From positions 1 through 13,591 of the forward strand of contig JBFWRL010000156.1 in the NCBI GenBank assembly GCA_050248915.1: 13,591 nucleotides of DNA, written 5' to 3'. Below the pieces are notes generated by a model. It did not search any database. It had not been told where the DNA came from and saw nothing but the letters and a program-made list of their open reading frames with translations. Of this stretch, positions 9,693-11,126 are shown in pieces (position 1 is the stretch's first letter; each line of letters opens with the position of its first letter). The stretch is from Candidatus Sericytochromatia bacterium. GTDB taxonomy: Bacteria > Cyanobacteriota > Sericytochromatia > UBA7694. A program made the position numbers and the translations under genes.

Positions 9693-11126
9693 ATGATACT
9701 CAATCAGAAATTAAAATCCGGTCTGTTATTGGCTGCGACATTTTGTCTGGTCTCTTTGCCTTTAACAGCATGCAATGGTCTGTCTTTGGGGCAAATGGGT
9801 CTCATTGGCCAAAGTGATTCGGGCATTTATGGCCTGCCACTCAAGCTGATTCACGAAGGTGAATGTCAAATGCCCAATTACACCCGCTATGAAGTGAAAG
9901 CCGATGGCACCTTTGGTTATTCCGAAGTGCCTGCCCCGGGCAGCACCGAAACGACCCCGCCCCCGCTTCAGAGCCGCAAGCTCTCCAATCTTGAGCAAAA
10001 CAATCTCAAGGCTCTGCTCAAAAAATTGGACTTGGCCCAATTGGCCAAAGCAGACAAAGTTGTGCCCGAAGGATCTCCACAGACAGCAGAATGTCGCACG
10101 GTTGAAGTGGCTGAACTGCTTGTCAATGGCAAAACCACCCGCTATGACAGCAATGGACGCAAGCTGATACACACCCCAGCTTATTCAGCGGCCTTAAAAG
10201 AGTTGCGGGAATTCCTCGATAACCTCAAGAACAACCCCACACCTGATCCCAGTCCCAGTCCCTCTGTTTTGCCCAATGGAGAGGGTGCTTTGCCACTCAA
10301 AGTCACTGGCAATGGCGAATGTGACATGGGTGAACAGCTTTTGTATGAAGTCTTGCCCGGCGGGCTCTTCCGCTTTCAGGCGGGCTCTGAGGCAGCTGTT
10401 CCACCGCAAGGCACCACGACAGGATTACAAACCCGACAATTGACGGCCGCTGAAGTCAATGAATTACACAGTTTATTGGCTGAACTCAACATCGAAACAC
10501 TCAGAGCCGCATCCAAACCTGTCCCCGAGGATGCCCCCCAAACCCTGGAATGCCGGACCATCAAAAATTTTAGCTGGATGGTTCAGAATCAAGCCAAAAC
10601 CTATGACCTCAATGGTCGTAAGTTTGTTCATAGCGAGGCCTATCGCAATGCTCTGAACAAACTGGACAGCCATTTAAAGGTGCTTGCAGAGCGGCATCAA
10701 AATACGGGCAAACAGCTCTATACATTGCCGCTCAAAGTCAATGTTGAAGGGGAATGTGGCCTGGACAGTTACACCCGTTATGAGCTCAAAGCCAATGGCA
10801 TGTTTACCTGGGCTCTGGAAAACGCCCAAACCTTGGTGGCGGGTCCCCCCCCGGTTCAGAGCCGGACTTTGAGCAATGGTGAAATCGAGTCTGTACAAAA
10901 ATGGCTCAACAGCTCAGCTTTGCAGGGGCTCTTTCTGCAATTGGAAGCCATTCCCGCTGACGCCCCTCAGACCAAAGAGTGCCGCAGTGTCGAAAAGCTG
11001 GAAGTGACCGTGAATGGTCAAAACTATCTGCTCGAAGGGCGTGGAACCCGCAAGTATCGCATCTCTGACGCTTATTCCAAGGCTTTGGGGGAACTTCAGA
11101 GCCTTTTAGAGCGTCTAGCAAAATAA
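9693..11126 (+). CDS. Lipoprotein composed of three tandem ~140-aa repeat domains, each with a conserved Cys pair. Function unknown; a protease inhibitor or binding module is one possibility.
   Basis: I chose the ATG at 9693 because it is preceded by AAGGAG with a 6-nt spacer. The signal is MILNQKLKSGLLLAATFCLVSLPLTACNG, with the lipobox L-T-A-C. The repeats share one pattern: PLK(L/V)..(E/N)GEC, then YTRYE(V/L)KA(D/N)G.F or LYEVLPGG.F, then Q(S/T)R.L(S/T), an LxxL..L helix, P(E/A)D(A/S)PQT.ECR(T/S), VNG. and Y..NGRK or EGRGTRK, and AY(S/R).AL.EL. Confidence 0.75.
   Translation: MILNQKLKSGLLLAATFCLVSLPLTACNGLSLGQMGLIGQSDSGIYGLPLKLIHEGECQMPNYTRYEVKADGTFGYSEVPAPGSTETTPPPLQSRKLSNLEQNNLKALLKKLDLAQLAKADKVVPEGSPQTAECRTVEVAELLVNGKTTRYDSNGRKLIHTPAYSAALKELREFLDNLKNNPTPDPSPSPSVLPNGEGALPLKVTGNGECDMGEQLLYEVLPGGLFRFQAGSEAAVPPQGTTTGLQTRQLTAAEVNELHSLLAELNIETLRAASKPVPEDAPQTLECRTIKNFSWMVQNQAKTYDLNGRKFVHSEAYRNALNKLDSHLKVLAERHQNTGKQLYTLPLKVNVEGECGLDSYTRYELKANGMFTWALENAQTLVAGPPPVQSRTLSNGEIESVQKWLNSSALQGLFLQLEAIPADAPQTKECRSVEKLEVTVNGQNYLLEGRGTRKYRISDAYSKALGELQSLLERLAK
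9822..11120 (+). repeat. Three in-frame tandem copies of the ~420-450-nt coding repeat inside the lipoprotein gene, with approximate boundaries. The copies have diverged at the nucleotide level and are conserved only as protein.
   Basis: Repeat 1 starts at GIYGLPLKLIHEGECQ, repeat 2 at GEGALPLKVTGNGECD and repeat 3 at GKQLYTLPLKVNVEGECG. Repeats 1 and 3 are closer to each other (YTRYEVKADGTF / YTRYELKANGMF) than either is to repeat 2. Confidence 0.6.

Follow-up and report, generated by a model that had tools for sequence, protein, structure and literature searches.

A triple-repeat envelope lipoprotein of Sericytochromatia with predicted Mago-fold domains, a conserved loop with one hypervariable residue, and a candidate microprotein gene at its 3' side

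What is the function of a lipid-anchored protein built of three cysteine-paired repeats whose gene converges on that of an exported subtilisin-like (S8) peptidase? This question is raised by the gene at positions 9693-11126 (+) of a complete 13,591-bp contig (hereafter the window) belonging to a Candidatus Sericytochromatia metagenome-assembled genome (MAG; GenBank assembly GCA_050248915.1, contig JBFWRL010000156.1). A preliminary description, made from the sequence without database searches, had considered the product a possible multi-headed inhibitor or binding protein. The protein has a 100% identical entry in GenBank, a "hypothetical protein" from a Candidatus Sericytochromatia MAG; it is a lineage-specific cell-envelope lipoprotein of Sericytochromatia and related basal Cyanobacteriota. 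What is new here is a known fold, as predicted by modelling, in a new setting (exported, disulfide-stapled, tandem and bacterial), in a family that edges an uncharacterised domain of unknown function (DUF). The preliminary description missed this Mago-like fold, and also a micro open reading frame (micro-ORF) in the gap between the lipoprotein and S8 genes. As to function, we tentatively favour, at somewhat short of an even chance, a multivalent binding protein without enzymatic activity that acts at the membrane surface, a conserved loop of each repeat being its contact site.

The three repeats of the lipoprotein are positioned as follows (aa, amino acids).

9822-10247 (+): repeat 1, aa 44-185, type A, predicted Mago-fold domain with a predicted disulfide C58-C134.
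10278-10706 (+): repeat 2, aa 196-338, type B, predicted Mago-fold domain with a predicted disulfide C210-C287.
10707-11123 (+): repeat 3, aa 339-477, C-terminal type, with a predicted disulfide C355-C430.

In agreement with the earlier statement that the domain family was not recognisable, Pfam and NCBIfam scans gave no family that recognises the lipoprotein and no enzyme family for the repeats or the whole protein, and the lipoprotein carries no enzymatic signature. Two kinds of matches were taken as spurious: an HHH_8 match obtained with the full sequence, which covers a helical stretch and scores 17 bits where the cutoff is 30 (E 0.0069), and short, repetitive sequence-profile matches in the PDB (E 0.006-2.8), to designed beta-propellers and an engineered cytochrome c555 trimer. 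AlphaFold2 modelling of repeat 1 on a 46-repeat alignment gave a model with a predicted local distance difference test score (pLDDT) of 93.2 and a predicted template modelling score (pTM) of 0.87, in which four beta-strands are followed by a long helix, a short helix, two further strands and a second long helix. The predicted model has the hallmarks of the Mago fold, namely a flat six-stranded antiparallel sheet with the helices on one face and the order beta4-alpha-beta2-alpha. The full-length model shows an identical secondary-structure pattern three times; its low pTM of 0.35 and its disordered linkers (aa 182-197 and 337-340) indicate that the domains are independent, like beads on a string. 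A fold search with a single repeat, which the preliminary description had proposed as a check, placed Mago/MAGOH chains at ranks 1-9 when Foldseek was run against solved-structure libraries, and this eukaryotic exon-junction protein was the sole significant match in those libraries.

Mago nashi/MAGOH (PF02792) is of similar size (~140 aa) and has the same predicted fold and element order, with one short and two long helices packed against the same side of a six-stranded antiparallel sheet. At the sequence level, hhalign aligned 60 columns of the repeat alignment (A2) with a 24-sequence Mago alignment of low diversity (Neff, the effective number of sequences, 1.7) at P 0.0025 and a probability of 11.8%; this alignment is colinear with the structure, running from the beta2-beta3 hairpin through helix 1 to the PxPD motif. 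The Mago_nashi profile matched neither the protein nor any of the 46 repeats at E <= 1, and the repeat profile retrieved no Mago chain from the PDB at E <= 10. The only Pfam family recurring among the repeats was DUF6438 (PF20033), which 7 of 46 matched at E < 1 (best 1.2e-4). The homologue P0010 matches it with 29.7 bits over profile positions 20-98 of 116, and precomputed public annotation assigns PF20033 to this protein. DUF6438 gave no match to the window protein at E <= 0.01, no member reached the 30-bit gathering threshold, and ten distant members were blank. These profile scores suggest a borderline, distant relationship. Membership of DUF6438 would not explain the lipoprotein, as this is a DUF without known function, and a search of one literature collection found no paper on DUF6438 or on a bacterial Mago-like domain.

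Conservation within the domain was counted over 138 domains. Both cysteines are aligned in 133 of them and absent from 4, and in the remaining one the second cysteine lies one column off; each of the 138 carries exactly two cysteines or none. In the model the two positions lie directly after the end of beta1 and directly before beta5. From these positions and from the paired loss we infer that the pair forms a structural disulfide, C58-C134, C210-C287 and C355-C430 in the three repeats. The most conserved segment of the domain is a loop, P-x-D-A-P-Q-T-x-E-C-R, that ends at the second cysteine. Its columns T87, E89, C90 and R91 have entropies of 0.29-1.35 bits, and P85 and Q86 of about 1.55 bits, against 3.26 bits for the hypervariable residue between T87 and E89 (hereafter x). 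The column entropies and a table of x residues support the following three loops in the window protein.

10065-10097 (+): loop of repeat 1, PEGSPQT-A-ECR, with x being Ala132.
10524-10556 (+): loop of repeat 2, PEDAPQT-L-ECR, with x being Leu285.
10953-10985 (+): loop of repeat 3, PADAPQT-K-ECR, with x being Lys428.

Among the repeats of one protein x nearly always differs, as it does here (A, L and K). It is K or R in 24 of the 43 C-terminal repeats, and elsewhere T, L, E, A, M or D.

Pairwise BLASTP comparison of the three repeats gave E-values of 1.9e-29, 1.2e-30 and 8.5e-20 at 34-41% identity. This similarity exceeds chance by far and, with the GEC...ECR cysteine pair kept in all three, it confirms the tandem of three ~140-aa domains that had been described from the sequence. 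The DNA of the repeats is diverged, with 45-52% nucleotide identity overall and 33-42% at third codon positions, which is near saturation, and only short residual direct repeats are left. As had also been noticed before, repeat 1 is closer to repeat 3 (51.5%) than to repeat 2 (44.9%). When 46 repeats from 15 proteins were clustered, they sorted by type across species and not within one protein. In 14 of the 15 proteins the series ends with a repeat of the C-terminal type, and only P0017 departs from this, its repeats falling outside the shared types; repeat 3 is also the best-conserved repeat when the window protein is compared with P0007 and P0010. The types occur in the combinations A-B-C (the window protein), N-A-C, N-B-C, B-C and N-C, and in five-repeat forms. 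Since the repeats cluster by type across species, the duplications are older than the divergence of these lineages. The modules are ancient and have been maintained, with later gains and losses. The old triplication under selection that the preliminary description had argued for agrees with this clustering and with the repeat number, which, in the comparison of relatives that it had proposed, varies from 1 to 5 per member.

The gene itself has the following signals and extent (nt, nucleotides).

9629-9658 (+): sigma-70-type promoter, TTGACA-18 nt-GATAAT, matching 11 of 12 consensus positions.
9681-9686 (+): Shine-Dalgarno sequence AAGGAG, 6 nt 5' of the ATG and kept in relatives.
9693-9773 (+): signal peptide with lipobox L-T-A-C, read from the sequence; the lipidated cysteine is residue 27.
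9693-11126 (+): coding sequence of the lipoprotein, 477 aa plus stop codon.

An ORF finder gave a longer frame, 9657-11126. Translation almost certainly starts at 9693, however, and not at the upstream ATG at 9657, because the Shine-Dalgarno sequence is placed 6 nt before the former, the -10 box GATAAT (ending at 9658) overlaps the latter, the upstream ATG is missing in 2 of 4 close relatives, and every homologue starts at the equivalent Met. The promoter hexamers and the A/T-rich block upstream of them show no change in 5 relatives, and the sequence farther upstream is variable. The N-terminus, MILNQKLKSGLLLAATFCLVSLPLTAC, is a textbook lipoprotein signal with its lipobox cysteine at Cys27. 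It has the basic n-region, the hydrophobic h-region and the lipobox ([LVI][ASTVI][GAS]C) of bacterial lipoproteins (MILNQKLKSGLLLAATFCLVSLPL-TAC, Cys27), and the majority of the 81 proteins and fragments of the family show a lipobox. The start codon, the gene's own consensus promoter and the lipid anchor via LTAC, all put forward in the preliminary description, can therefore be kept.

A word-indexed search had found 21 homologues. When 1.84 billion representative proteins were searched exhaustively with a profile (E <= 0.001), 68 matched, 3 of them unrelated immunoglobulin (Ig) or leucine-rich repeat (LRR) proteins; P0074, P0076 and P0081, Ig-repeat or LRR proteins matched over short segments, were rejected as members. 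All named sources among the members are Sericytochromatia, Blackallbacteria, "Melainabacteria" or Cyanobacteriota, and the family is found almost only in non-photosynthetic relatives of cyanobacteria. The lipobox is often followed by a long Pro/Ser/Thr-rich tether, which spans 40-100 residues in single-domain members. Some single-repeat members among P0051, P0052, P0054, P0056, P0060, P0062, P0063, P0067 and P0079 have an additional C-terminal region of ~110-150 aa without Pfam match; that of P0051 holds a CPGNVQC motif, and P0079 is a fusion to DUF6174, a domain without assigned function. Such fusions were rejected as a clue to function, the ~110-aa extensions being without Pfam match and DUF6174 uninformative.

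The neighbours with which the lipoprotein gene converges are these.

11229-12941 (-): S8 peptidase, 570 aa, a predicted lipoprotein (VSAC, Cys27); Pfam Peptidase_S8 E 2.5e-20.
12938-13591 (-): 3' part of an NHL-repeat beta-propeller gene, which ends at the contig edge; Pfam NHL E 8.7e-37.

Both had been named correctly from the sequence. The catalytic triad of the S8 peptidase is intact, and its residues D199, H240, N338 and S426 do not vary among 35 orthologues, the majority of them with a lipobox. The stop codon of the NHL gene overlaps the S8 start by 4 nt and, by tblastn, the part of the NHL protein present in the window is 84% identical to a 642-aa NHL protein of locus L001. Gene context was compared on MAG contigs. 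In relatives the NHL-S8 pair is preceded by a PatA_N-domain gene and a methyltransferase gene, beside the gene for valyl-tRNA synthetase (ValRS). This four-gene block (PatA_N, S-adenosylmethionine (SAM) methyltransferase, ~640-aa NHL propeller and S8 lipoprotein, by ValRS) was seen at L001, L002, L007 and L017-L020, and its last two genes are those at 11229-13591 (-) in the window. Start and stop codons within the block overlap, and it is kept throughout Sericytochromatia at S8 identities as low as 40%.

The relation of the lipoprotein gene to this block is looser. It is convergent with S8 in 7 distinct loci, with identities down to 47% for the lipoprotein and 58% for S8, and the adjacency persists where the other flank of the lipoprotein gene differs; it occurs only in the subclade with at least 58% S8 identity. 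Four genomes with S8 proteins of 40-51% identity have the ValRS / PatA_N-methyltransferase-NHL-S8 block intact and no repeat domain within 7 kb. What follows S8 in those four is a metallo-beta-lactamase-fold protein, an unknown 215-aa protein, a small ORF and an ion channel. Conversely, seven lipoprotein homologues have no S8 gene within 6-10 kb, among them P0010 (51% identical), which is closer to the window protein than some S8-adjacent homologues. In the HGW-Melainabacteria-1 MAG the lipoprotein and S8 genes lie on separate contigs. The lipoprotein gene is one of several genes at the variable end of a conserved block, and the conserved adjacency of a cognate protease-inhibitor pair was not found. 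Judged by the test that the preliminary description had set for itself, loss of the gene from the surroundings of the protease in relatives, the link drawn from gene neighbourhood does not hold. As a separate observation, LysM-domain proteins (421-658 aa) are encoded 0.1-5 kb from the repeat lipoprotein gene at L005 (1400-2665), L006 (14026-15957) and L022 (7133-9109).

How do these data fit a multivalent binding protein? Lipidation at Cys27 would be followed by a tether of ~17 residues and then by three ~140-aa domains on flexible linkers. Each domain would be an exported Mago-type fold, stapled by one disulfide, and would show one disulfide-anchored PxDAPQT-x-ECR loop as the proposed contact site, in which residue x (Ala, Leu or Lys) would set the specificity of each head. 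The multi-headed binding protein of the preliminary description is compatible with the fold as predicted and with the loop pattern. As its most specific activity we would propose that it docks to envelope serine proteases in a substrate-like (canonical-type) manner, or inhibits them. The adjacent S8 lipoprotein would be only one candidate target. Several points weigh against it. The variable x in the conserved loop may be a mere solvent-facing position without a role, and x is often acidic (E/D), an unusual choice for the P1 position of a serine-protease inhibitor. In addition, the fold matches no known inhibitor family, SSI-type (Streptomyces subtilisin inhibitor) hits in Foldseek having a template modelling (TM) score of ~0.3 and E >= 0.08, and gene context yields no consistent partner across the family. 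Considerably bolder, and in our view with only a small chance of being right, is the proposal of true homology between this bacterial repeat and Mago nashi. The repeat would then be the first relative of an exon-junction-complex core protein in a prokaryote, in sister lineages of the photosynthetic cyanobacteria, and at the same time the founder of a new family of canonical multi-headed protease inhibitors with the residue between QT and ECR as P1 of each head.

Other explanations have to be set against the multivalent binding protein. A possible, if doubtful, one is that the lipoprotein serves the envelope as a scaffold or spacer and has no relation to proteases. Tethered and modular, it would extend across the periplasm or cell surface to bind peptidoglycan, an envelope protein or a surface polymer, with an architecture like that of tethered regulators such as LpoB or that of repeat adhesins. 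The beads-on-a-string architecture with its Pro/Ser/Thr-rich tethers, the variation in repeat number, and the LysM-domain proteins close by in three S8-less loci (L005, L006 and L022) are all consistent with this, and the Mago fold is known, from Mago-Y14 structures, to serve protein-protein interaction in eukaryotes. On the other hand, Pfam scans gave no motif for peptidoglycan binding and none of an adhesin, the distance of the LysM neighbours varies and they may reflect shared synteny only, and a scaffold leaves a single hypervariable residue inside an invariant loop unexplained. We regard as improbable the more dedicated role that the preliminary description had offered as speculation, in which the lipoprotein would be the cognate inhibitor or chaperone of the adjacent S8 peptidase and would keep this protease inactive, or fold it, at the membrane. 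It is true that the genes adjoin in 7 distinct loci, even where the other flank differs, that both products are lipoproteins and hence would occupy one compartment, that both families are narrow and of the same lineage (HGW-Melainabacteria-1 having both, at separate loci), and that the loop pattern is compatible with an inhibitor. However, convergent genes are not co-transcribed, the repeat domain is absent near the four intact S8 blocks and S8 near the seven lipoprotein homologues mentioned above, and no similarity to I9 propeptide, SSI, Kazal or emfourin was found. The inference "beside a protease, hence an inhibitor" thus breaks down once enough relatives are compared. Very improbable, in turn, is a redox or metal-binding protein in which the Glu-Cys pairs of GEC and ECR would act as ligands or as a redox-active dithiol. 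It is true that most domains have a glutamate before each cysteine (E13 in 122 of 138 domains, E89 in 104), and that the cysteines disappear only as a pair; yet the protein is exported to a normally oxidising compartment, the cysteines would lie at facing ends of the antiparallel neighbour strands beta1 and beta5, which is the usual geometry of a disulfide, and there is no similarity to a known metal-binding or thioredoxin-like fold. Finally, a non-functional gene (a chance ORF or a decaying repeat) is effectively refuted by the conservation data, as 68 family representatives have common domain boundaries, the lipobox and invariant residues, the promoter and Shine-Dalgarno sequence are conserved, and the fold is predicted with confidence.

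The gap between the lipoprotein and S8 genes contains one further feature.

11142-11225 (+): micro-ORF, previously unannotated, with Shine-Dalgarno sequence AAAGGAG at 11142-11148 and coding sequence at 11157-11225 (22 codons).

The gap had been described as 100 bp separating the two genes. A spacing of ~100 bp is correct, but the gap is not empty, since this conserved ORF of 22 codons lies inside it, beginning 30 nt past the lipoprotein stop and ending 3 nt short of the S8 stop codon. Its product, MNGWEFILVVMILGVLLLPDFH, consists of one hydrophobic helix and is a candidate membrane microprotein. Across the 7 distinct loci 20-22 of its 22 residues are identical, although identity in the flanking proteins drops as low as 47-58%; the micro-ORF is far better conserved than both neighbours. 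In the same loci the variable columns number 4, 1 and 13 at the first, second and third codon positions, respectively; 10 codons show synonymous changes only and 4 show conservative changes. Of the upstream spacer, 22 of 31 columns are variable. Such a 3-periodic substitution pattern marks a gene that is translated and kept by purifying selection. The peptide was not in the protein collection and had no convincing family match. An Rfam scan of the window, gap included, found no RNA family, so that the conserved gap is not a known RNA element. The micro-ORF is found only at loci where the lipoprotein and S8 genes abut and is absent from lipoprotein-only and S8-only loci; the possibility that it is a universal partner of the lipoprotein was rejected, as it is present in none of the 7 S8-less lipoprotein loci.

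Behind the lipoprotein gene at L021 and L022 lie a GC-rich hairpin and a T-run, which on inspection by eye we take for an intrinsic terminator. Between the stops of the micro-ORF (+) and S8 (-), at 11223-11231, no terminator-like site turned up. Because of this, and because the coding regions are 3 nt apart, the convergent transcripts probably overlap at their 3' ends, and such an overlap could permit antisense or interference effects. At L019, an S8 locus without lipoprotein, a 35-aa hydrophobic ORF (MNGLAMCKSVLSDFVSLFLYALPMLFLVLMFRPQL; 8774-8881 (-)) is convergent to S8 in the position of the micro-ORF; it likewise begins with MNG, and homology between the two is not evident. With the micro-ORF, a phylum that has been little studied gains a candidate small regulatory protein.

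The remainder of the window contains further conserved genes. At 5845-8286 (+) lies the gene for an 813-aa bacterial protein resembling the major vault protein (MVP), with a shoulder domain (Pfam E 6e-27) and weak Vault_3 and Band_7 matches; it has no PDB sequence match at E <= 0.001 and is also conserved in L001. Directly 3' of it, at 8349-9551 (+), are genes for a DUF1963 protein (244 aa) and an unknown 155-aa protein, which abut, the first ending at 9083 and the second starting at 9084. The presence of the identical trio in L001 suggests that these three genes form an operon. A 186-aa protein encoded at 4440-5000 (+) has repeated MshE-type cyclic-di-GMP-binding motifs (NCBIfam NF053729, E 2e-27) and a faint match to PatA_N/DUF4388; a PatA_N domain also heads the S8 operon. 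At 781-4214 (-), the gene for a pyridoxal-phosphate (PLP)-dependent PALP-family enzyme (403 aa, weak ACT match) overlaps that for an MMPL-family transporter (741 aa) by 4 nt, a pairing that is kept in L001.

As to known systems, the closest analogy in mechanism, not in family, is with the Kazal/ovomucoid and Bowman-Birk inhibitors. These too have small disulfide-braced domains in tandem with one loop each, and a conserved loop frame in which one hypervariable position differs among the heads. The sequence pattern of the lipoprotein would fit such a canonical loop, disulfide-braced and with a hypervariable P1 in a conserved frame. The fold is entirely unlike theirs, however, and acidic residues are frequent at the variable position of the lipoprotein; Kazal (I1), SSI (I16), I9 propeptide and emfourin gave no sequence or fold match. 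The loop frame T-x-E-(Y/C)-R resembles the reactive site of Kazal inhibitors at P2-P3'; that of the turkey ovomucoid third domain is T-L-E-Y-R, and repeat 2 has T-L-E-C-R, which is a lead and not a test. The SSI family (MEROPS I16) likewise consists of a small alpha/beta domain with a disulfide beside the binding loop and targets subtilases. Foldseek gave weak hits to the SSI-type structures 6i0i and 4hx3, and identity with this type was rejected at a non-significant TM of ~0.3. If the loop is a reactive-site loop, the lipoprotein would represent a new protease-inhibitor scaffold with a separate specificity per head. In architecture only, the lipoprotein resembles tethered outer-membrane lipoproteins of the LpoB type, which combine a lipid anchor and a flexible low-complexity tether with one or more small alpha/beta, non-enzymatic binding domains. 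It differs from LpoB in having tandem repeats, and no sequence or fold similarity and no link to a peptidoglycan synthase were seen.

The likeness to Mago concerns the fold. The lipoprotein is bacterial, exported, lipid-anchored, tandem and, as predicted, disulfide-stapled, whereas Mago is a single-domain nuclear and cytosolic protein that binds the RNA-binding domain of Y14 in the exon junction complex, and for an exported bacterial lipoprotein no partner equivalent to Y14 would be expected; the QT-x-ECR loop, an NGRK motif and the cysteine pair are present in the lipoprotein repeats and absent from Mago. With a sequence identity of about 11%, no Pfam match and an hhalign probability of 12%, the resemblance may be due to homology or to convergence. 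A bacterial version of the Mago fold would accordingly be either a striking case of convergence or a clue to the origin of a core eukaryotic RNA-processing protein.

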